Below are positions 3,884 to 44,784 of a DNA stretch of 44,784 nucleotides, piece by piece. Source of the stretch: Escherichia phage TL-2011b. The position numbers and the translations under genes were made by a program. The stretch is taken from sequence record JQ011317. One strand, written 5' to 3'. Within the stretch, counting starts at the first letter, position 1, and each line of letters starts with the position of its first letter. The notes beneath the pieces were generated by a model. That model was not told the origin of the DNA, ran no database searches, and was given only the letters and a program-made list of their open reading frames with translations.

Positions 3884-4701
3884 ACATACATATCCTGTTT
3901 ACGTGCCCAGTCAGGACGTTTAATAATTTCCACTCCGCCCCATTCATCGTTGATGCGGCATTCGTGATAGGTATTCAGATCCCGGCGGAACAGAGCGTGC
4001 CCGGCATCGACATCCGGCACATCCAGCTCGAACACGCGTACCGGATACCGACCACAATCAATGCTTTCGCTCACGGCAAGAAAGAAAAAACCATGCGGCT
4101 GACCAGTAACCCTCATTGCGCCTTCGCGGTACATTGCGTCCTGCACGTGGTAGCGGAATTCCTCGATGTGACGTGCAAAACGCTCCATATCTGCAACCTT
4201 TTTCACGTCGACGATCACGTTGTGCTCGTTCAGCCATTTGTCTGGACGAATTCGGCACAACTCACCAGTCTCTTCATCGTTCCAGTACATTGACGCTTCG
4301 CAGTAACCAGGTGCTTCCAGCATCCAGCGTGCCGCCGGGTGAGCCATTGCGCTATCACGCATCAGCTCCAGTTTCCGCCACTGCTCGGCATCAAGTACCG
4401 TAATCCCCATATCCGCCACATCACGAAGAAATGCCTCTTCGTCAGCTTTACCTTGTTTCGTCCGACGATCGAATTTCGGTGAAACAATGAAGCGTTTGTC
4501 GAACTCTCCAGGCTCCAGAAGCAGACAGTGCAATGCGGTTCCCATATCCAGTGCAGACTTTTTCTCTTCGTCTTCTGGTGCTGCCTGAACCCATTTAAGA
4601 AGCGCCGGATTCTTGGCAACCATGTCAAGTTGCGACTTACTCACGCCGTCACCGGCGTGGTAGTCTTCGTTGCTGATGTCGAAATAAATTCCCGGTTTCA
4701 T
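3880..4701 (-). CDS. PD-(D/E)xK exonuclease, RecE/YqaJ-like partner of RecT
   Basis: 273-aa ORF starting MKPGIYFDISNEDYHAGDG with IVDVKKV motif; immediately upstream of recT. Confidence 0.65.
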   Translation of the reverse strand: MKPGIYFDISNEDYHAGDGVSKSQLDMVAKNPALLKWVQAAPEDEEKKSALDMGTALHCLLLEPGEFDKRFIVSPKFDRRTKQGKADEEAFLRDVADMGITVLDAEQWRKLELMRDSAMAHPAARWMLEAPGYCEASMYWNDEETGELCRIRPDKWLNEHNVIVDVKKVADMERFARHIEEFRYHVQDAMYREGAMRVTGQPHGFFFLAVSESIDCGRYPVRVFELDVPDVDAGHALFRRDLNTYHECRINDEWGGVEIIKRPDWARKQDMYV

Positions 4702-6423: not shown

Positions 6424-6636
6424 TTGAAGATAGTAACCAGAATGGAGGCCGCAAAAGCCGGGTTAAATCGCTATTTCACAGGAAAGCGGTGCCGTCACGG
6501 CCATCTCTCTGAAAGGTATGTTCTGAACGGAACATGTGTTGAATGTGCAATGAATAGCGCCAACCGCCATCGTAATGAATTTGCTTGTGCACTAAAGAGT
6601 GCAAGAGGGGAAACCTATGGCAAGCAGCTGGATTAA
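6424..6636 (+). CDS. Small Cys/His-rich protein (about 64-70 aa)
   Basis: TTG start at 6424 with AAGGGG Shine-Dalgarno, or ATG at 6442; motif CRHGH...CVEC; overlaps the O-like gene start. Confidence 0.4.
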   Translation: MKIVTRMEAAKAGLNRYFTGKRCRHGHLSERYVLNGTCVECAMNSANRHRNEFACALKSARGETYGKQLD

Positions 6637-7441
6637 GGTTGAAGTTATCACTCCTGATAAACCTGAAATTTTTCAGATAGCAGAAATTCTGGGTATTGAT
6701 CCAGATGCTGTTCTTGGAAAGCTGGTTCGTATATGGGCATGGGCTGACCAGCAAACAATAGACGGTAACGCTGGCAGCGTTACAAAAGGAGTACTTGATA
6801 GACTCGCTTTTATTACAGGATTTGCTGACGCCCTCATTAGCGTCGGATGGCTTGCTTATCATGACGGCAAACTAATTCTTCCAAACTTTGAGCGACACAA
6901 TGGAGAATCATCGAAAAAACGTGCACTTACGAATAGAAGAGTGGCAGAGCATCGAAAACGAGTAACGCAAAAAGTAACGCCAACAGCGTTACAAAAGGAG
7001 TTACCAGAGGAAGAGGAAGATATATATAAAACCCCACACATAGCACACGCGCGCGAGAGTGATCCGACCAGTGAAGCGAACGGTACGCCGTTGCAGGTGG
7101 CAGAACCTGCATTTCTGGATGGCCTGAGTGAACCTATTGGGAAATTTCCGATGACCGATGGCTGGCATCCATCGCCGGATTTTCGACGGCGTGCTGCGCT
7201 GTGGGGAACGGCCCTGCCGGAACCGGAATTTACACCTGCTGAACTTGCTGCATTCCGGGATTACTGGATGGCTGAGGGCAAAGTGTTCACGCAGGTTCAG
7301 TGGGAACAAAAATTCGCCAGGCACGTAAATCATATCAGGGGAAAATCAAAAAACGTCGGGAAAAGCGATGAGCTTGACTGGAATAACACTGACTGGATAG
7401 AAGGGGTGTGGGATGAAATCAACTCCAGAACTTCTCAATGA
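6617..7441 (+). CDS. Replication initiator / replisome organiser (lambda O-like)
   Basis: ATG at 6617 with GAGGGG Shine-Dalgarno; contains iteron-like repeats and an AT-rich tract; followed by a P-like gene. Confidence 0.6.
   Translation: MASSWIKVEVITPDKPEIFQIAEILGIDPDAVLGKLVRIWAWADQQTIDGNAGSVTKGVLDRLAFITGFADALISVGWLAYHDGKLILPNFERHNGESSKKRALTNRRVAEHRKRVTQKVTPTALQKELPEEEEDIYKTPHIAHARESDPTSEANGTPLQVAEPAFLDGLSEPIGKFPMTDGWHPSPDFRRRAALWGTALPEPEFTPAELAAFRDYWMAEGKVFTQVQWEQKFARHVNHIRGKSKNVGKSDELDWNNTDWIEGVWDEINSRTSQ
6765..7031. repeat. Putative origin of replication: iterons plus AT-rich tract inside the O-like gene
   Basis: GTAACGC / GCGTTAC inverted pair at 6765-6783; AGTAACGC at 6961-6968 and 6973-6980; AGCGTTACAAAAGGAG at 6776-6791 and 6985-7000; GATATATATAAAA at 7019-7031. 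Confidence 0.45.
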
Positions 7442-14419: not shown

Positions 14420-14496
14420 TGGCGTGGCATGCAGGATTCGAACCTGCGACCAACCGCTTAGAAGGCGGTTGCTCTGTCCAACTGAGCTAATGCCAC
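14420..14496 (-). tRNA. tRNA-Arg (anticodon UCU)
   Basis: 77-nt cloverleaf folded by hand: acceptor GTGGCAT/ATGCCAC, D-stem GCTC/GAGC, anticodon stem ACCGC/GCGGT with loop CTTCTAA, T-arm GCAGG-TTCGAATC-CCTGC, encoded CCA. Confidence 0.85.
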
Positions 14497-35715: not shown

Positions 35716-37809
35716 ATGACGGTCTCAACCGAAGTTGACCACAACGAATACACCGGTAACGGTGTTACAACGACATTCCCTTATACCTTCAGGATTTTCC
35801 AGAAATCTGATTTAGTAGTGCAGGTTGTTGACCTGAACGAGAACATCACAGAGCTGATTCTTGACACTGATTACATAGTTACTGGGGCTGGAGGATACAA
35901 TGGTGGCAATATAATTCTGTCGAAGGCATTGGTTAGCGGTTATCTGATTTCTATATCACGAGAGCTCCCGGTTACGCAGGAAACTGATTTGCGTAATCAG
36001 GGTAAGTTCTTTGCAGAAGTGCATGAGGATGCTTTTGATAAGCTAACGATGCTGATCCAGCAGGTTCGAAGTTGGTTTAGCTTGGCGCTGCGTAAGCCGT
36101 CATTCGTGGCAAATTATTATGATGCGCTTAACAATTACATCAGAAACTTACGCGATCCTTCAACCCCCCAAGATGCAGCCACTAAAAATTATGTTGATAC
36201 ACAGCTCAGTTCTAACCTGGGGTGTACTTTGCGCGTTCAGGAGCAGATACCGCAACTTCCTGATGCTGCCTCCCGCGCAAACAAGATGCCTGCTTTCGAT
36301 AACGATGGTAACCCTATTGTTGTGCTTCCTCCATCAGGGTCTGCGTCTGACGTATTGATCGAGCTAGCCAAGCCAACTGGATCTGACTTGGTTGGTTATG
36401 GGTCACAGACGGTTAAAGCAACCCTTGATAGCCTGAATAGCATGCGGGAGGAGCTTCTTGATAAAACAGGATTTAATGCGCTGGGGCGCTTCCTTAATCT
36501 TTCAGAGCTTCGCTCCTGTGTTCCGGAGGAGGCAGGGCAGATTGTATACGTAGCATCAGCAGCTAGCACTACACATGCTGAAAACCACCTTGGTGGCGGC
36601 TTTTTCGAGTCTGTTGATAACATTCAGGCGTGGGCTGATGATGGTGGAATTGTAATCAAGCCAGAAACTGGAACGATGGTATGGAGACGAATTAATTTTA
36701 CCACTTACGACATGCAATTTTGGGGGGTGAAACCTGACGGAGTCACAGATAACGCAACAGCTATAACTCTTGCAACTAACTTTGCTCGCTCAAACAAATG
36801 CATTCTAGAGGCTCCTGCTGGAAACATAAATACATCAAAAACAATCCCAATTTATGACAATATGGGAATTAGAGGACAGGGAAAGGCTGAAGCGACAGTT
36901 TTTTATAAAACAACAAATGACAAAATAGATCTCACAAAAAATGGAGAAGTAATTCTTCAGGTGGATGCATTATGTGCTTTTATACCAAAGCAATGGGATC
37001 TAACAGATAACTCAATTAGTTCATTTTGTGTTAACGGTAGAGTTGAAAACTGCATGTTTAGAAGGCTTGGCTTAACACAAGAAAATGTAGATTCTTATAG
37101 AAATTATTACGGACTGTTTTTAGGAAAATCAGCAGCACCAGTTATCAGACAGTCAATTTTTGAATGTGCTTATATCGGATGCTTCTCTTATGTGCCGTTC
37201 TCTGGCGTAATGGAAATGGTCGGTTTCCCACAATATCCAGGGAAAGGATATGCTGGAGTTTTGTTTGAAGATTTTAGGGATGGTCAAATAAAAGTAATTG
37301 GCACTTCTATGGATATGCGCCTTGTTCAAGTTAATGGTTACCAGTTGTCATTTAGAATGTCCGGGATGCAATATACTACCATGACCAATTGTACAGCTGA
37401 AAACTGCACGCCAATGGATGGGGAATCAACTTGCTACGCATTTGATTTTGTAAATCCGTATTGCATTGTCATGAATACTTGTGCAACAGAATTTGTTAAA
37501 GGGGGGCAATTGCGTGTTAGCGTTCAGGGAAACCCATCATTCCGCCCATCTATTATTGTCAATGGCTTTCTACCAATTGACCAACAAAGTCCAGTAGTGC
37601 AAACACCTATAATTGATATTGACAATGGTGGTGTTGTTGAAATGAGTGTCATATTGAATGGTGGTGATTGGGCAATAAATCCATCGGCTGTAAATTTAAC
37701 TTCTCCAAAAGCAAGTGGTAATGGGTTGAAGGTAAGATTGATCGGTGTAAATGGCTCTCCTTCTTCGGTGTGGAGTGCGTCTTCTGGTGCAGAAGTAAGG
37801 GAGTTCTAA
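35716..37809 (+). CDS. Tailspike / tail fiber protein
   Basis: 697 aa; N-terminal virion-attachment-type domain followed by a long beta-rich C-terminal region; GGAGA Shine-Dalgarno. Confidence 0.65.
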   Translation: MTVSTEVDHNEYTGNGVTTTFPYTFRIFQKSDLVVQVVDLNENITELILDTDYIVTGAGGYNGGNIILSKALVSGYLISISRELPVTQETDLRNQGKFFAEVHEDAFDKLTMLIQQVRSWFSLALRKPSFVANYYDALNNYIRNLRDPSTPQDAATKNYVDTQLSSNLGCTLRVQEQIPQLPDAASRANKMPAFDNDGNPIVVLPPSGSASDVLIELAKPTGSDLVGYGSQTVKATLDSLNSMREELLDKTGFNALGRFLNLSELRSCVPEEAGQIVYVASAASTTHAENHLGGGFFESVDNIQAWADDGGIVIKPETGTMVWRRINFTTYDMQFWGVKPDGVTDNATAITLATNFARSNKCILEAPAGNINTSKTIPIYDNMGIRGQGKAEATVFYKTTNDKIDLTKNGEVILQVDALCAFIPKQWDLTDNSISSFCVNGRVENCMFRRLGLTQENVDSYRNYYGLFLGKSAAPVIRQSIFECAYIGCFSYVPFSGVMEMVGFPQYPGKGYAGVLFEDFRDGQIKVIGTSMDMRLVQVNGYQLSFRMSGMQYTTMTNCTAENCTPMDGESTCYAFDFVNPYCIVMNTCATEFVKGGQLRVSVQGNPSFRPSIIVNGFLPIDQQSPVVQTPIIDIDNGGVVEMSVILNGGDWAINPSAVNLTSPKASGNGLKVRLIGVNGSPSSVWSASSGAEVREF

Positions 37810-37820
37810 CTATACAAACA

Positions 37821-37875
37821 TTGACATAATTAATATGTTAATCTAATCTGCCGGAAATTTCAACCATTCCGGCAG
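37821..37875 (+). promoter_or_regulatory. Promoter-like element and 5' hairpin upstream of the acyltransferase gene
   Basis: TTGACA at 37821-37826; inverted repeat CTGCCGGAA / TTCCGGCAG (37848-37875) ends 4 nt before the ATG. Confidence 0.35.
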
Positions 37876-37879
37876 AGTT

Positions 37880-38986
37880 ATGAATAATAAAGGTAATATA
37901 ATTCAAAGTCTTACATCGTTGAGAATGTTTGCCGCTCTTGGTGTTTTTGTTAGTCACCTTGGGCTATTGTCTCAATCATCAATTGGTGTGTTTAATGCTG
38001 CGGCAAAGTATTTTTTTAATGGTTACATAGGTGTGACATTTTTCTACATTCTTTCTGGTTTTATTATAAACTATAGTTTCATAAATCATGTAGAAAAAGA
38101 AGCATTCAGCAATAAAGATTTTATTGTGTACAGAATAGCAAGAATATTTCCTGTGCATATTGTAGCTCTTCTTTGCTTTATTTTAATATTTATGCATGGT
38201 AAGATGGGTGATGGTATTAGTAAGGAAATGCTTATTTCAAATGTGTTTCTGGTGCAGTCATTCATCCCAATTCAGGATTATTATTTTTCTTTTAACTCCG
38301 TTTCATGGAGTATCTCATGTGAGATGTTTTTCTACGTTTCATTCTGCTTCTTAACAAGGCTAAAAACAAAATATTTAGTCTGTGTTCTGTTATTTGTTCT
38401 TGTGATTAATTTCTATTTCTTAATTAACCCGCCCATAACAATATCACAGCACTGGTTGTTTTATATAAACCCAGCATTTAGAATTGGTGATTTTATTATA
38501 GGGATGATGCTCTGTAGAGTATTTATTAATACTAGTGCAAGACCTAACAATACTGTTTGCAGTATCATTGAAATTGCATCAATATTGTCATTGCTTTTGA
38601 CAGTATATATAGCAACAAACTATATTACATATATGAATATAAAGTATGATGTTCTATATATTCCTTGCATGGCATTTATAGTTATTGCCTTTGCTTTTAA
38701 TGGTGGGATATTATCTAAAATTCTTAAAAATAGATTTATGGTTTTGCTTGGCGAGGCTTCTTTTTCATTTTATATGTTTCACTGGATGATTATTCAAATA
38801 GTAACAAAAATATTGAGCGTAGAAAAAGACAACTTTATCGATATGTTGGTGTATGTTGTTTTATCTTTGTTTGTTTCTATTATTGCATCAATACTATCAT
38901 TCAAGTTGATAGAAATGCCAATAAATAAAACAATAAGAAGATGTTGGAAAAAATATAGGGGGATGCAGTCTGTCAGGAGTGCATGA
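37880..38986 (+). CDS. Acyltransferase family 3 membrane protein (O-antigen O-acetyltransferase, serotype conversion)
   Basis: 368 aa, about 10 predicted TM helices, AT-rich; N-terminal R..AALGVFVSH pattern typical of acyltransferase-3 proteins. Confidence 0.75.
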   Translation: MNNKGNIIQSLTSLRMFAALGVFVSHLGLLSQSSIGVFNAAAKYFFNGYIGVTFFYILSGFIINYSFINHVEKEAFSNKDFIVYRIARIFPVHIVALLCFILIFMHGKMGDGISKEMLISNVFLVQSFIPIQDYYFSFNSVSWSISCEMFFYVSFCFLTRLKTKYLVCVLLFVLVINFYFLINPPITISQHWLFYINPAFRIGDFIIGMMLCRVFINTSARPNNTVCSIIEIASILSLLLTVYIATNYITYMNIKYDVLYIPCMAFIVIAFAFNGGILSKILKNRFMVLLGEASFSFYMFHWMIIQIVTKILSVEKDNFIDMLVYVVLSLFVSIIASILSFKLIEMPINKTIRRCWKKYRGMQSVRSA

Positions 38987-39024
38987 GTATTTTTTCTTTT
39001 GTTCGTTTTAGGTGTACAAAGATT

Positions 39025-39066
39025 GAAACAGGCAACCCCACATTGATGGGGTTGCCTGTTTTCAAT
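39025..39066 (+). terminator. Strong terminator after the acyltransferase gene
   Basis: Long stem GAAACAGGCAACCCCA / TGGGGTTGCCTGTTTC around a 6-nt loop, then TTTT. Confidence 0.7.
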
Positions 39067-39342
39067 GCGTTATAAAAATAAGTTTTTTTGTTATTTAAAC
39101 TTTCTTTATTACTGATGAATCCTCACCAAATAAATTCAAGGTATAAGTCAATATATGGCATATAATAAATATATCTAAACTCACCTAATTATATATAATG
39201 TAATTTTGAACACTTAATAGATAATTGCTCCTGTTCTTTCTTCCATTCATAAAATTAAATTATGTTTATCCATATATGGTTTGTTGTGTATGATATACCC
39301 ACTCAACTAAGGGGGTGTCATGAACAGTAAACGGTGGTTGCA

Positions 39343-39747
39343 ATGTCTGCTGGTCTAACAAGTGAATCATTAAATCAGTGGCTTAGTGTGAGTTCTCTTG
39401 CTGCGGTGATAGCGGGAGTTCCTCCAGAGGTCGCTTTGGGATCTTTGGCTGGTGCGGTAATTTTTGTTACCTCTGCAGTAGAATACCCAATCCGTCGTCG
39501 TGTTCTTCTGTCGATGCTCAGCTTTCTCTGCGGCCTTCTTTTCTACAAACCGGCAGCATCAATTCTTATCGGCATAGCTAGCCTGATTCCAACCATCACG
39601 CAGGACTCATTCGAGAAAGGGATTGTATTTTCTGCAGGTGCGTTCGTGTCGGCAATTGTCGCTGTTCGTATTGGTATATGGCTCTATCACCGTTCCGATA
39701 ATCCACGCGAGTTAATTCCGGGGAGAAAAGACGATGGTAACGCATGA
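39343..39747 (+). CDS. Holin (three predicted TM helices)
   Basis: 134-aa hydrophobic protein at the head of the lysis cassette; alternative TTG start at 39334. Confidence 0.5.
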   Translation: MSAGLTSESLNQWLSVSSLAAVIAGVPPEVALGSLAGAVIFVTSAVEYPIRRRVLLSMLSFLCGLLFYKPAASILIGIASLIPTITQDSFEKGIVFSAGAFVSAIVAVRIGIWLYHRSDNPRELIPGRKDDGNA

Positions 39748-40042
39748 CCTTTTTTTACTTATCACCAATGCAGTTATTTGTACTGGCATAGCAATTCGCG
39801 TTGTCACTTTCCAGCGTAACGGATCTCAACACCGAAGATGGGGTGGGTGGATTGCTTATTTCCTGATTGTTGCTGCGGCCAGTATTCCTGTTCGTGTCGT
39901 TTATGCAATCTGGTTACGCACGCCAATGGCTGTGGATTTATCTGAGGTCATTATCAACGCTGTCATGCTTGCTGCGGTTATTAAAACGCGCGGTAACGTT
40001 GTGCAGATTTTTAAAATAACGAGGTCTAAACATGGAGATTAA
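39734..40042 (+). CDS. Second small membrane protein (holin/antiholin-like)
   Basis: 102 aa, two predicted TM helices, overlaps neighbours by ATGA-type coupling. Confidence 0.45.
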
Positions 40043-40661
40043 ACAATTCCAGCGAGCTGCTGGTATTAGCGAGGCGTTGGCCGCACGCTGGTTCTCGCAT
40101 ATAACTTCTGCGATGAAAGAGTTTGGTATCAGCAAAACCGAAGATCAGGCAATGTTTATTGCTCAGGTCGGGCATGAGTCTGGTGGTTTCACCCGGTTGC
40201 AGGAGAATTTCAACTACAGTGTCAGCGGTCTAGCTAACTTCGTTCGGGCTGGGCGTCTCACTCAGGGGCAGGCTAATGCACTGGGTCGCCGTGCTGGTGA
40301 ACCACCATTGCCACTTGAGCGCCAGCGCGCGATCGCAAATCTGGTATACAGCAAACGCATGGGTAACAATGCTCCCGGCGATGGCTGGAATTACCGTGGG
40401 CGCGGGCTTATCCAGATTACCGGTTTGAATAACTATCGTGACTGTGGAAACGGTCTGAAAGTTGACCTGCTGGAGAATCCTGAACTGCTGGCGCAGGACG
40501 AATACGCGGCTCGTAGCGCGGCGTGGTTCTTCTCCGGCAAAGGCTGCATGAAGTATACCGGCGATATTGCTCGTGTAACTCTGATTATCAATGGTGGCAG
40601 GAACGGCATAGACGACCGGCGAGCGCGATACATCACTGCCAGTAAGGTGCTGACGGTATGA
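40032..40661 (+). CDS. Endolysin, glycoside hydrolase family 19-like
   Basis: Motifs [12 protein letters not shown] and [12 protein letters not shown] typical of GH19 lysozyme-like endolysins. Confidence 0.75.
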
Positions 40662-41140: not shown

Positions 41141-41250
41141 CATGGTATTTTTCATGGTACTGATTTCCGGTGACGGTATATAAAACGGTACGGGAAAAAT
41201 TGAGCTTTGGAAAAATGTTACCACTCAATTGGTTATGGTATCCGTAAATA

Positions 41251-41265
41251 ATTGAGTGGGAATGA
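41251..41265 (+). other. guaA: Orphan 3' terminus of guaA (IEWE-stop) at the right prophage junction
   Basis: ATTGAGTGGGAATGA encodes IEWE-stop, the GMP synthase C-terminus, with an in-frame stop just upstream; inverted copy CCACTCAATT at 41221-41230. Confidence 0.5.
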
Positions 41266-41295
41266 TTTTAATCCCTGCACTATGAATGAACAAAA

Positions 41296-41321
41296 CCCTC
41301 TGTTACTACAGAGGGTTTTTT
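41296..41321. terminator. Native guaA/yfgI bidirectional terminator
   Basis: Stem CCCTCTG / CAGAGGG, loop TTACTA, then TTTTTT; second hairpin CTTCAAG / CTTGAAG at 41325-41347. Confidence 0.6.
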
Positions 41322-41359
41322 ATCTTCAAGAATCATAGGCTTGAAGTTACTAACATCGA

Positions 41360-41899
41360 TTAATTAAACCAGCTGTCCGATTTGTTCTCTTCTGCTTTGC
41401 CCACGCTTTTCATCAGATCGCGACCGCCTTCAGTCATATTTCTGTTGGCGTCAGCTTCAGATTGCACCACATCGGTTTGCGCAGCTTTGTGCTTCAGTTC
41501 CTGATCGATAAATTCGTTTTCTCGCTTAACGCGGGCTTCTTCTTTCGCCAGCGCCAGTTTTTGTTTCTGAATCTCTAAGCTGCGTAGCTCATCTTCATAA
41601 CTTTGATCGCGTTTTTTGTCCGCAGAGGCTTCGGCGTCCAGTTTATCCTGACGAGCTTTCTTATTTGCTGCTGCCGTTGCCGCTCTTTTGTTAGCGGCGG
41701 CCTGGGCATTTGCGCGACGTTGCTTCTCTTGCTGGATTTCCCTGTTGCGCTCCGCGACCCATTCGTCATGCTGCCTTTGCTCTTCATTTTTACCTTGCTG
41801 TTCAGCTTCTGCTACAGCAGAGAGTTGATCCTGCAATGATGAGGCGATAGCCGGATAGCTTAAGGAGGCCAAGATGGCGCAAAGAAAAACTTTCTTCAT
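41360..41899 (-). CDS. yfgI: Host periplasmic coiled-coil protein, YfgI-like
   Basis: 179-aa ORF with signal peptide; size and gene order match yfgI-yfgH-yfgG-yfgF next to guaA as recalled for E. coli. Confidence 0.5.
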   Translation of the reverse strand: MKKVFLCAILASLSYPAIASSLQDQLSAVAEAEQQGKNEEQRQHDEWVAERNREIQQEKQRRANAQAAANKRAATAAANKKARQDKLDAEASADKKRDQSYEDELRSLEIQKQKLALAKEEARVKRENEFIDQELKHKAAQTDVVQSEADANRNMTEGGRDLMKSVGKAEENKSDSWFN

Positions 41900-41914
41900 G
41901 ACTCCTCCTGATTA

Positions 41915-42433
41915 TTAGCTCTTTTCAGGACATTTAGTATTTGGCTGAATACGCGTTTCGTTATACGTTGTGGTAATAACAACGGCTAAACCTGTCGTAA
42001 ACTGGCACTCTTTACCCACCTGGGTAGAGGTATACACTTTGGTGCCTTCCTTATATGTTAAAGAAACACCTTCCACTAAGGTTTTATCATTCACCATAGA
42101 ACCCGCTGCCGCGCCTACAGCTCCGCCGCCAACTGCCCCTGCCGTCGTTCCGGAATTGCTGCCAGAACCGACGTTGTGGCCGATAACACCGCCAGCGACT
42201 GCGCCAATAAGCGCGCCGAAGGCTTGTGCGTTCCGTTTATTTTGGGAGTTGTCTACGGCAACTTTTGCGGGAAGAATGGAAATAATATTAACGGTTTTAG
42301 TTTCTTGTTTGGTATTCAGTTGATCGGTTTGATAAACATCGGCGGCATGATCGTCAGCATTTGACTGGCATCCTGCCAGAGTGAATGACGCTAACATTGC
42401 CACAGGCAGAAGACATTTTTTAAATTTCATCAC
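41915..42433 (-). CDS. yfgH: Host lipoprotein with glycine-zipper region, YfgH-like
   Basis: 172 aa; lipobox LAGC; Gly-rich segment. Confidence 0.5.
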   Translation of the reverse strand: MMKFKKCLLPVAMLASFTLAGCQSNADDHAADVYQTDQLNTKQETKTVNIISILPAKVAVDNSQNKRNAQAFGALIGAVAGGVIGHNVGSGSNSGTTAGAVGGGAVGAAAGSMVNDKTLVEGVSLTYKEGTKVYTSTQVGKECQFTTGLAVVITTTYNETRIQPNTKCPEKS

Positions 42434-42743
42434 TATTCCTTGTTATACACATTACGAAAAATAAGACATTTAAGATCATCAAAAGAGGAAAGTAAATGTA
42501 TTGCGTATAAAGGGATAGATTAAATTTATTAAAATTCACGCAGGGAATAATTTATAAAAATATATCATTACAACATATATATTAATTTTATATTTATTTC
42601 GCAGCCAAACAGGATAAACATCAGTCAGGACAAAGACGTAAAATTTAAGATGAAAGAATATCTGCCGCTTTGATAATTCCAAAGAGCAAAAGCATCCGAC
42701 AGCGAAGTGCCGTTATGTTCTGTGAAAGTGGAGAAGGTAACCG

Positions 42744-42935
42744 CTAACGTTGTACCGGTGATTCGACGGAGAGTGTGGATTGCTGAGCTTCTTTTTTGCT
42801 CTGATGGTGCTGCCAGGCACCGACGGACGAGTAGATAAAACGGCCAAAGAAGAAGATAAAGCTGATGAGCAGTACGATACGGGTCATGCGACTGTTAAAT
42901 CGGTGTCGTTTTCGCATACTGGTTGCCTGACTCAC
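42744..42935 (-). CDS. yfgG: Host small membrane protein, YfgG-like
   Basis: 63-aa ORF with one TM helix. Confidence 0.45.
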   Translation of the reverse strand: MSQATSMRKRHRFNSRMTRIVLLISFIFFFGRFIYSSVGAWQHHQSKKEAQQSTLSVESPVQR

Positions 42936-43286
42936 AAAAGGTTCCTTGAAGTATGTCCCAAGCTGTGGACGGTACTTGCATTAAGGCACAACAGGACAAA
43001 ATGGTCAATTCTTCGTTATGTAAAAAAGCGTCAGTGGATACATATTTTAATGTTATGGAAGTTAATTTAATTATTTACAATGATGATGTAATAATGATGA
43101 ATTAACATGATAAACGTAATAATTCATTAATCAGGGTTATTTTGTTTGATATATATCAATTGGAACTTTCATATGACACTTAGAATCAATGCTCTCTATA
43201 GTGATGAATAATCATCATTCGAAGTCAGGTGGGATGCCTGTCTGAATACACCTCCTTCAGGATGTGGGGGATTCTGCTGAGCATCT

Positions 43287-44784
43287 ATGAAACTGAATGC
43301 AACTTATATAAAAATACGTGATAAATGGTGGGGGCTTCCGCTGTTCTTGCCTTCTTTAATCTTGCCCATTTTCGCCCACATTAATACTTTCGCGCATATT
43401 TCTTCCGGTGAGGTTTTTCTCTTTTATCTGCCTCTGGCACTGATGATCAGCATGATGATGTTTTTCAGCTGGGCGGCATTGCCAGGGATCGCCTTAGGGA
43501 TTTTTGTCCGCAAATATGCAGAGCTGGGTTTTTACGAAACGCTATCATTAACGGCTAATTTTATTATCATTCTCTGTTGGGGCGGTTACAGGGTCTTTAC
43601 TCCCCGGCGTAACAACGTTTCACATGGTGATACCCGTTTAATTTCCCAGCGTATATTCTGGCAGATTGTGTTTCCTGCAACGCTGTTTCTGATACTTTTC
43701 CAGTTTGCTGCATTTGTAGGATTACTGGCGAGCAGAGAAAATCTGGTCGGTGTCATGCCTTTTAACCTCGGGACTTTAATCAATTATCAGGCCTTACTGG
43801 TGGGTAATCTGATCGGTGTCCCGCTGTGCTACTTCATCATTCGGGTAGTGCGAAATCCATTTTATTTACGTAGCTATTATTCGCAATTAAAACAGCAGGT
43901 TGATGCCAAAGTCACCAAAAAAGAGTTCGCGCTCTGGCTACTGGCATTAGGTGCTTTATTGTTGCTGTTATGCATGCCGTTAAATGAAAAAAGCACAATT
44001 TTTAGCACCAATTATACCTTGTCATTATTGCTGCCCCTGATGATGTGGGGAGCGATGCGCTATGGTTATAAGCTGATTTCTCTGCTCTGGGCGGTCGTGT
44101 TGATGATCAGCATCCACAGCTATCAAAATTACATTCCCATTTATCCTGGCTATACCACGCAGCTGACCATAACCTCCTCCAGTTATCTGGTATTCTCTTT
44201 TATTGTCAATTATATGGCTGTACTGGCAACCCGTCAGAGAGCGGTAGTCAGACGCATTCAGCGGCTTGCGTATGTGGACCCGGTGGTTCATCTGCCAAAT
44301 GTTCGCGCCCTGAATCGCGCGTTGCGTGATGCCCTCTGGTCTGCGCTTTGTTATTTACGCATCCCTGGCATGGAAATGCTGGTTAAGAACTATGGCATCA
44401 TGCTGCGGATTCAATACAAGCAAAAACTTTCTCACTGGCTGTCACCCTTGCTGGAACCGGGTGAAGATGTTTATCAGCTTTCGGGTAACGATCTCGCGCT
44501 GCGACTGAATACAGAATCGCACCAGGAGCGCATTACCGCACTGGATAGCCATCTCAAGCAATTTCGTTTCTTTTGGGATGGCATGCCGATGCAACCGCAG
44601 ATTGGCGTCAGTTACTGCTATGTGCGCTCGCCAGTGAATCATATCTACCTGCTGCTGGGAGAGCTAAATACGGTCGCCGAACTTTCCATCGTGACCAACG
44701 CCCCGGAAAATATGCAGCGTCGCGGGGCAATGTATTTGCAACGCGAATTGAAAGATAAAGTCGCGATGATGAATCGACTACAGC
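43287..44784 (+). CDS. pdeF: Host membrane sensor protein, partial (5' part; PdeF/YfgF-like)
   Basis: ATG at 43287, open to the window end; multi-TM N-terminal domain then cytoplasmic region; not in the ORF track because it has no stop in the window. Confidence 0.5.
   Translation, partial: MKLNATYIKIRDKWWGLPLFLPSLILPIFAHINTFAHISSGEVFLFYLPLALMISMMMFFSWAALPGIALGIFVRKYAELGFYETLSLTANFIIILCWGGYRVFTPRRNNVSHGDTRLISQRIFWQIVFPATLFLILFQFAAFVGLLASRENLVGVMPFNLGTLINYQALLVGNLIGVPLCYFIIRVVRNPFYLRSYYSQLKQQVDAKVTKKEFALWLLALGALLLLLCMPLNEKSTIFSTNYTLSLLLPLMMWGAMRYGYKLISLLWAVVLMISIHSYQNYIPIYPGYTTQLTITSSSYLVFSFIVNYMAVLATRQRAVVRRIQRLAYVDPVVHLPNVRALNRALRDALWSALCYLRIPGMEMLVKNYGIMLRIQYKQKLSHWLSPLLEPGEDVYQLSGNDLALRLNTESHQERITALDSHLKQFRFFWDGMPMQPQIGVSYCYVRSPVNHIYLLLGELNTVAELSIVTNAPENMQRRGAMYLQRELKDKVAMMNRLQ

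Follow-up and report, generated by a model that had tools for sequence, protein, structure and literature searches.

The acyltransferase cassette of phage TL-2011b

We analyzed a stretch of 44,784 nucleotides from Escherichia phage TL-2011b (sequence record JQ011317), referred to at its full length as the window, with a focus on a gene for a putative O-antigen O-acetyltransferase and the sequences that flank it (Table 1). TL-2011b has been described as a 45-kb, 47% GC phiV10-like phage located at guaA, with accession JQ011317, in the strain of the 2006 Norwegian outbreak of enterohemorrhagic Escherichia coli (EHEC) O103:H25 (PMC3293862). Contig AGSG01000181.1 from EHEC O103:H25 NOS is 100% identical to the window over 12.9 kb and encodes the exact acyltransferase with the same neighboring genes. 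A sequence-only reading of this DNA had placed a 368-aa acyltransferase-3 (AT3) protein between the tailspike and lysis genes and had called both the gene and the DNA downstream of it AT-rich, all of which was borne out by the gene coordinates, the family searches, and the base composition. GC content is 30.2% in the acyltransferase gene and 28.8% in the 347 bp that follow it (38987-39333), compared with 47.1% in the entire window and 51% in the lysis genes.

Table 1. Features in and around the acyltransferase cassette of TL-2011b (positions in the window)
Feature	Position	Strand	Details
Tailspike gene	35716-37809	+	697 aa
Tailspike N-terminal virion-anchor part, phiV10-like	35716-36198	+	89% nucleotide identity to phiV10; many PHROG tail-fiber N-terminal matches
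Tailspike receptor-binding domain, O103 type by homology; part of the putative exchangeable module	36361-37809	+	Identified by homology
Predicted -35 hexamer, TTGACA	37821-37826	+	TTGAC invariant in 20 leaders
Predicted -10 hexamer, TAATCT	37844-37849	+	Family consensus TAAyCT; 17-bp spacing fixed
Perfect 10-bp hairpin	37847-37876	+	Arms 37847-37856 (TCTGCCGGAA) and 37867-37876 (TTCCGGCAGA); 10-nt loop
GGCAG motif	37871-37875	+	4 nt upstream of ATG; each position 90-100% conserved in 20 leaders
AT3-only acyltransferase gene, predicted O-antigen O-acetyltransferase	37880-38986	+	368 aa, membrane protein
Long GC-rich hairpin after the stop codon, terminator-like	39022-39066	.	Perfect 15-bp core, 39026-39040 / 39047-39061
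AT-rich non-coding spacer of the inserted cassette	39067-39255	.	About 190 bp; no open reading frame of at least 40 aa
Holin_8-like gene	39334/39343-39747		Downstream of the acyltransferase gene
3TM holin gene	39734-40042		Downstream
GH19 endolysin gene	40032-40661		Downstream, followed by Rz/Rz1

The protein matches the Pfam family Acyl_transf_3 (PF01757; E 6.7e-24, 85 bits against a cut-off of 31) over residues 9-336, which cover profile positions 2-324 of 326, and PHROG 3333, "O-acetyltransferase", at 2.4e-86. The motifs defined for AT3 proteins are R/K-X10-H in the first transmembrane helix (TMH1), with a catalytic histidine that is H25 in OafA, FFxxxSG in TMH2, and RxxR in TMH3 (PMC7448272). 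In an alignment of 28 homologs, the corresponding residues R15 and H26 (R-X10-H), F54, F55, S59, and G60 (FFYILSG), and R85 and R88 (RIAR) are invariant, and the TmAT fold of ten transmembrane helices was recovered for the window protein. The same sequence-only reading had also proposed an O-antigen O-acetylase responsible for serotype conversion, a prediction to which homology, motifs, fold, and genomic context all give good support.

A receptor-binding domain and acyltransferase gene that occur together

The structural genes of the window are 97% identical to those of phage phiV10 and other Uetakeviruses. Homology to phiV10 ends at 36198, after the tailspike anchor, and returns at 39256, just upstream of the holin-like gene. 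In between, the receptor-binding domain is 94% identical in amino acid sequence to the tailspike of a P22-like E. coli prophage (locus L001) that adjoins intS and a tRNA-Arg gene, and window positions 36458-38961 share 90% nucleotide identity with that locus. Identity to L001 stays at 99-100% for the greater part of the receptor-binding domain; in 100-nt windows that begin at the tailspike 3' end and run across the acyltransferase gene, it is 68-94%. The fall, from 99-100% to roughly 80-90%, lies near 37260-37760. Together with the varied alleles described below, this drop suggests recombination within the 3' end of the tailspike gene and possibly diversification of the acetylase. Among phage isolates, the best matches to the receptor-binding domain are the O103-specific vB_EcoP_PAS7 (52%) and Ro103C3lw (44%), and the receptor-binding protein of the Uetakevirus TL-2011b has been listed as an O103 subtype (Pas et al., PMC10408124).

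This analysis adds the observation that the AT3 gene is accompanied by the receptor-binding domain in prophages of several genera, P22-like and epsilon15-like ones among them. A tailspike domain homologous to that of the window lies upstream of the acetylase gene in 14 of 26 related loci, which come from Escherichia, Cronobacter, Morganella, and metagenomic or viral contigs, and the tailspike-acetylase intergenic distance holds steady at about 70 nt. Identity to the window is 91% for the tailspike domain and 65% for the AT3 protein in L281, 78% (whole tailspike) and 64% in L283, 71% (domain) and 60% in L009, and 55% (domain) and 50% in L013, from Morganella. The linkage is not clonal, since one receptor-binding domain, at least 90% identical in amino acid sequence among the window, L001, L053, L281, and L055, is paired with acetylase alleles of 100%, 82%, and 64-65% identity.

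Most homologs of the acyltransferase are encoded directly behind tailspike or tail-fiber genes, in P22-like, epsilon15-like, Mu-like, and other prophages. Further homologs adjoin gtrA/gtrB, and one that is 50% identical (P0040) lies inside an Enterobacter O-antigen cluster, between glycosyltransferase genes and gnd/ugd. Genes for O-antigen modification have been noted behind the receptor-binding protein in Uetake- and Lederbergviruses (PMC10408124). In some Enterobacteriaceae, a homologous acetylase gene is chromosomal and lies after fliE, outside any prophage (L010, 4986-7114; L306, 4001-8380), with either another AT3-like gene (split in L010) or gtrB/gtrA-like genes behind it. These chromosomal loci retain the promoter and GGCAG motif described below, and L306 has lost the inner arm of the hairpin. 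In a Mu-like Cedecea prophage (L286, around 3960-4000), the stretch of about 20 nt that precedes the acetylase promoter is similar to the final tailspike codons (GCAGATGTTAAGG...TGA) of the podovirus loci. This similarity, which is too short for confirmation by tblastn, may mark a remnant that came with the module.

A conserved leader with a predicted promoter and a hairpin

The short region between the tailspike stop codon and the acyltransferase start codon is shared with diverged relatives, and 20 distinct upstream regions of such relatives (here called leaders) were aligned. This conserved promoter-plus-hairpin leader in 20 diverged relatives is a further observation added by our analysis. 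The shared -10 element is TAnnCT, and alignment positions T24, A25, and T29 (promoter positions -12, -11, and -7) are invariant; these are the -10 positions that weigh most for sigma-70. Mean pairwise identity is 0.96 in the -35 hexamer and 0.82 in the -10 hexamer, compared with 0.41 in the promoter spacer, 0.43 in the hairpin loop, and 0.60-0.66 in the hairpin arms. This pattern suggests that the leader carries a genuine promoter of the sigma-70 type, whose geometry predicts a transcription start at about 37856.

The hairpin itself is genuine and conserved in relatives. The sequence-only reading had reported a 9-bp inverted repeat at 37848-37875 ending 4 nt before the ATG; the repeat is real, and it proves to be a perfect 10-bp one that ends 3 nt before the ATG. 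An outer extension of the helix (37844-37847 with 37877-37880) reaches the A of the start codon. Perfect inverted repeats of at least 10 bp with loops of 3-12 nt occur at seven distinct sites in the window, compared with 0.45 +/- 0.78 matches in dinucleotide shuffles. As RNA, the leader hairpin has a folding energy of -16.4 to -19.3 kcal/mol (z -4.2 to -5.2). Pairing in register holds in 80% of the cells of the alignment, against 31-53% when the partner columns are slid, and one helix pair switches among G-C (4 sequences), A-U (8), and G-U (4). In L010, L013, L203, and L306 the helix runs outward, with -10 bases pairing with GUUA or AUUAAU, including the start codon.

The arrangement of promoter and hairpin is unusual in that the 5' arm is formed by the end of the -10 hexamer plus the discriminator, which is why the predicted start falls at the end of that arm. 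With the 5' arm upstream of the predicted start, the gene's own transcript would lack it, and folding would be limited to RNA that reads through from the tailspike gene; the folding energy is -16.4 kcal/mol for such RNA and -1.1 for RNA that begins at the predicted start. Directly behind a tailspike gene the hairpin averages -13.8 kcal/mol and elsewhere -7.4 (Mann-Whitney p 0.0017, uncorrected for phylogeny), and the promoter is retained in both settings. Scans of the whole viral-contig collection for the promoter with the 5' arm and for the dyad pattern returned only this gene family and GC-rich chance matches without an AT3 gene. In an Rfam scan of 37600-39500, nothing passed the threshold; the chance matches fell on the downstream terminator, with the rimP leader at 30 bits where the gathering score is 47.

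The GGCAG motif within the 3' arm was considered separately. It is not a Shine-Dalgarno sequence, and this candidate was rejected. It was also rejected as an RfaH ops/JUMPStart element, for which GGCGGTAG with conserved G5 and T6 is required; the window reads GGCAGAGT, and the equivalent of T6 varies among leaders.

The downstream hairpin and the AT-rich spacer

The long-stem hairpin that the earlier reading had noted after the gene was likewise recovered, with a perfect 15-bp core and folding energies of -30.2 kcal/mol on the + strand (z -5.7) and -32.8 on the - strand. A consensus scan calls it terminator-like on the - strand alone, because the + strand has just four U's after the stem. From the look of its A-tract and U-tract, it may be a bidirectional terminator, and it could plausibly insulate the acetylase gene from the lysis genes. 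In nearly all relatives, a strong hairpin follows within about 100 nt of the stop codon, each time with a different sequence, which fits independent promoter-gene-terminator units, or morons. In BLAST searches of 5,426 complete E. coli genomes, neither a source of 38965-39215, in the region of the terminator and spacer, nor a homolog of the AT-rich spacer appeared, and the spacer matches no Rfam family at threshold. Within the acetylase coding sequence, a promoter-like site on the + strand (38597-38626; TTGACA, 18-bp spacer, TATATT; 11 of 12 matches) is probably a by-product of the 30% GC content.

A probable O-antigen acetylase moron

Taken as a whole, the cassette is reasonably likely to be a lysogenic-conversion O-antigen O-acetylase moron of a phiV10/epsilon15-like prophage. 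The enzymatic part of this reading is the more secure, and we consider it highly probable that the AT3 protein acetylates the host O103 O-antigen and confers superinfection resistance, and that the cassette is a self-contained unit that reached its slot by horizontal transfer, a slot where phiV10 has an unrelated oac. An O103-acting lysogenic-conversion acetyltransferase is the best reading because of the O-antigen cluster, gtr, and tailspike contexts of the relatives; both the substrate and the acetylated position are predictions. The AT3-only membrane protein would transfer acetyl groups from cytoplasmic acetyl-CoA to the O103 O-antigen of the host and thereby alter the receptor recognized by the adjacent O103-type tailspike, so that the lysogen would resist superinfection by TL-2011b and other O103-specific phages. 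The unit would comprise its own sigma-70 promoter (37821-37849), the coding sequence, and its own terminator hairpin.

Several points weigh against so specific an assignment. The closest characterized phage acetylases are at most 25% identical to the window protein, phiV10 Oac has no significant pairwise similarity to it, and, to our knowledge, the published O103 structure is not O-acetylated. The enzyme might instead modify another envelope glycan, such as capsule (K-antigen), enterobacterial common antigen, the lipopolysaccharide core, or peptidoglycan, given that AT3 proteins act on many glycans (PMC9558356), that no NCBIfam model, and thus no equivalog, matches the protein, and that no characterized homolog is more than 33% identical. 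We regard this as very unlikely, as the gene is linked to an O103-type tailspike, has homologs in an O-antigen cluster and beside gtr genes, and occupies the oac slot of phiV10, and as the protein is AT3-only like Sf6 Oac, in contrast to the AT3-SGNH architecture of the staphylococcal peptidoglycan O-acetyltransferase (PMC7448272).

The organization of the cassette follows the moron concept of Juhala and Hendrix, in which a unit with its own promoter, gene, and terminator and with a deviant base composition is inserted between two genes that in relatives are neighbors or enclose other content. Here, the GC drop (30% against 47%), the terminator-like hairpin, and the breaks in phiV10 homology at 36198 and 39256 correspond, the conserved hexamers would supply the promoter, and expression from the prophage would be expected. 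We see no difference in kind, and the window cassette appears to be a textbook example, its putative promoter and terminator backed by comparison of relatives.

Oac of the E. coli O157 phage phiV10, reportedly the subject of a study by Perry et al. in 2009, lies in the corresponding slot of a phage of the same type, flanked by the tail fiber/tailspike gene and the holin genes. Like the window protein, it is a membrane protein of the AT3-only kind, and its annotation assigns it O-antigen acetylation and superinfection immunity (PMC9558356). In contrast to the window gene, phiV10 oac lies on the opposite strand and encodes 338 rather than 368 aa, its upstream region has no comparable promoter-embedded hairpin arrangement, and the serogroup is O157 as opposed to the O103 predicted for the window.

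Among matches listed to sequenced phage isolates, the window protein is at most 33% identical to phage proteins. Shigella phage Sf6 Oac and OacB, OacC, and OacD are AT3-only O-antigen acetylases found next to the tailspike in P22-like phages, and the location of Sf6 Oac behind a P22-like tailspike is matched by window family alleles in L001 and L281. The motifs FFxxxSG and RxxR, which are essential in Oac (PMC7448272), are also present in the window protein, and the receptor masking attributed to proteins of the Sf6 Oac type (PMC9558356) would be shared with the role proposed here. The target O-antigen differs, and no Sf6-like record is among the phage matches listed for the window protein, all of which are less than 34% identical. 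We know of no conserved leader hairpin described for Sf6 Oac or OacB, OacC, and OacD. Salmonella OafA and OafB (GtrC of BTP1) are AT3 O-antigen acetyltransferases as well, OafB being prophage-borne, and its acetylation of rhamnose protects against the cognate phage BTP1 (PMC9558356). OafA and the window protein have the R/K-X10-H of TMH1 and RxxR in common (PMC7448272). They differ in that OafA and OafB are AT3-SGNH fusions with an 11th transmembrane helix, whereas the window protein, at about 24% identity, has no SGNH domain.

A possible role for the leader hairpin

The insertion sequences IS10 and IS50 offer a precedent for the leader. In these elements, a segment upstream of the element's own transcription start complements the translation initiation region, so that only incoming transcripts fold and are silenced. 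This fold-back inhibition of read-through transcripts was reportedly described by Davis, Simons, and Kleckner in 1985 and by Schulz and Reznikoff in 1991. The same logic may apply to the acetylase gene, where the 5' arm is upstream of the predicted start and the 3' arm lies 3 nt before the ATG. In the insertion sequences the protected gene is a transposase rather than a phage moron, and the 5' arm here would be the -10 hexamer and discriminator itself.

By this analogy, we tentatively propose that the promoter-embedded hairpin insulates the gene from late read-through RNA. The lysogenic transcript from about 37856 would have an unstructured leader of 24 nt and would be translated, whereas late read-through RNA from the tailspike gene would fold back over the initiation region and stay untranslated. 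The membrane enzyme would thus be kept off late phage mRNA and yet be expressed in the lysogen. We infer the transcription start and the translational effect of the hairpin from the sequence, and the case for the read-through mechanism is only moderately strong.

A number of results count against this proposal. In the 10-pair core of the helix, no measure of covariation exceeds column shuffles. In the 13-pair extended helix, double changes number 13 compared with 7.3 +/- 2.7 (17 of 500 shuffles reach this value) and the covariation score is raised (30 of 500 shuffles reach it), but only these two measures are elevated, to levels that relatedness alone can give. RNAalifold returned no consensus structure from the leaders. 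A large excess of G.U cells as a sign of strand-specific, RNA-level selection was dropped from consideration, as the column-wise count is 19 G.U against 12 A.C cells; with G.U not clearly above A.C, selection on RNA is not separable from selection on DNA. A generic promoter scan did not list the site at 37821-37849, because its -10 hexamer fits only three of six consensus positions. GGCAG persists in leaders that no longer have the matching 5' arm (L306, L307, and L293), which implies that part of the conservation of the 3' arm has another cause.

The sequence-only reading had suggested that the hairpin could occlude ribosome binding, that is, sit in the 5' untranslated region of the acetylase and throttle or regulate translation in the lysogen. 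Transcripts carrying both arms would indeed be poorly translated, given that only 3-4 nt separate the 3' arm from the ATG and that the region shows no good Shine-Dalgarno sequence. For the gene's own mRNA, however, this would need a start upstream of 37847, and the only conserved promoter signals put the start at about 37856, past the 5' arm; the nearest upstream sequence is the tailspike coding region. Occlusion on the gene's own mRNA is therefore improbable, and what stands of the suggestion is a real, conserved hairpin that could act on read-through RNA only. The hairpin might also belong to the tailspike gene, as a 3'-end stabilizer or as a weak terminator or pause site whose closeness to the acetylase ATG is incidental. 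It starts 38 nt past the tailspike stop codon, is strongest in loci where a tailspike gene ends about 70 nt upstream, and is co-conserved with the last tailspike codons (...ADVQEF). On the other hand, no U-tract follows the stem (AGUUAUGAAUAAU), so it is not a canonical intrinsic terminator, and its 3' arm lies 3-5 nt from the ATG in 20 of 20 leaders and pairs with the start codon itself in several. A weakened form also remains in loci that have no tailspike gene upstream. We consider a tailspike element unlikely, if somewhat less so than occlusion on the acetylase mRNA.

As an alternative to any role in RNA, the inverted repeat could be a DNA operator, with a dimeric host or phage repressor on the dyad CTGCCrGAA-N10-TTCyGGCAG switching the acetylase promoter and making conversion regulated or phase-variable. 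Both arms are conserved and the loop is free, as would be expected of half-sites, the dyad overlaps the -10/+1 region, and covariation at symmetric positions with no G.U excess suits DNA-level as well as RNA-level selection. Its carriers, though, are P22-like, epsilon15-like, and Mu-like phages and chromosomal islands of several genera, so unrelated that there would be no shared phage regulator. Complementarity continues outward as far as the start codon with a 1-nt bulge on one side, a geometry that fits RNA and not a symmetric protein site, and the 5' arm decays in loci without the upstream tailspike gene although the promoter stays. The dyad is also, as we take it, unlike the consensus sites of LexA, CRP, Fur, and OxyR. 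We favor read-through RNA over a protein operator because the carriers share no regulators, the outer helix has its one-sided bulge, and the hairpin is firmer behind the tailspike, and we rate an operator as no more probable than occlusion on the acetylase mRNA. In sum, the most likely target of the hairpin is read-through RNA rather than the mRNA of the acetylase gene itself, with an operator or a structure at the tailspike 3' end as possible alternatives.

The most far-reaching version of the read-through proposal strikes us as doubtful. In it, the hairpin would be a dedicated insulator that confines translation of the conversion gene to its lysogenic transcript and silences the gene on late read-through RNA, and would travel in a portable module of O-antigen-specific tailspike receptor-binding domain, leader, and AT3 gene exchanged among P22-like, epsilon15-like, and myovirus prophages across Enterobacterales; the EHEC O103:H25 outbreak strain would then have a previously unrecognized O-acetylated O103 chemotype. 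If the enzyme does acetylate the O103 antigen, some O103 Shiga toxin-producing E. coli, including the 2006 Norwegian outbreak clone, would bear a modified receptor. O103-specific phages, tailspike-based diagnostics, and tailocins could be blunted, and serological or vaccine epitopes could change. The same modification has been flagged as a caveat for serogroup prediction from prophage tailspikes (Pas et al., PMC10408124). The conserved leader also offers a cheap, testable model of how morons in late operons might escape expression from late transcripts. Apart from this leader, the cassette is what one would expect in phages of this group.

Prophage boundaries and other features

The right end of the window is host DNA. 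Positions 41200-44784 are E. coli core sequence (yfgI, yfgH, yfgG, and pdeF), present in 5,426 of 5,426 complete genomes, and only this core DNA lies to the right of about 41320. A 32-nt direct repeat at 41-72 and 41289-41320 is 88% identical between its copies, each of which forms a hairpin (AACCCTCTGT...ACAGAGGGTT) followed by T's. The pair is probably attL and attR, a duplicated terminator at the guaA-side integration site.

Within the prophage, a tRNA-Arg gene (anticodon TCT) lies on the - strand at 14420-14496. The early region contains an 80-nt direct repeat (2788-2867 and 6591-6670, 85% identical) that spans the starts of two open reading frames.

Downstream of the cassette, the holin_8-like gene probably starts at the ATG at 39343 (134 aa, which agrees with phiV10p27 and with the gene called on identical contigs) and not at the GTG at 39334. 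A 12-codon mini-open reading frame (ATG at 39320; MNSKRWLQCLLV and a stop codon) with a strong Shine-Dalgarno sequence, AAGGGGG, overlaps this start, in the region 39309-39358. Positions 39256-39333, just upstream of the lysis genes, are 88% conserved with phiV10, and their 3' part recurs in the epsilon15-like loci L283 and L291. This segment is probably a candidate promoter or regulatory region of the lysis cassette, independent of read-through across the acetylase gene.

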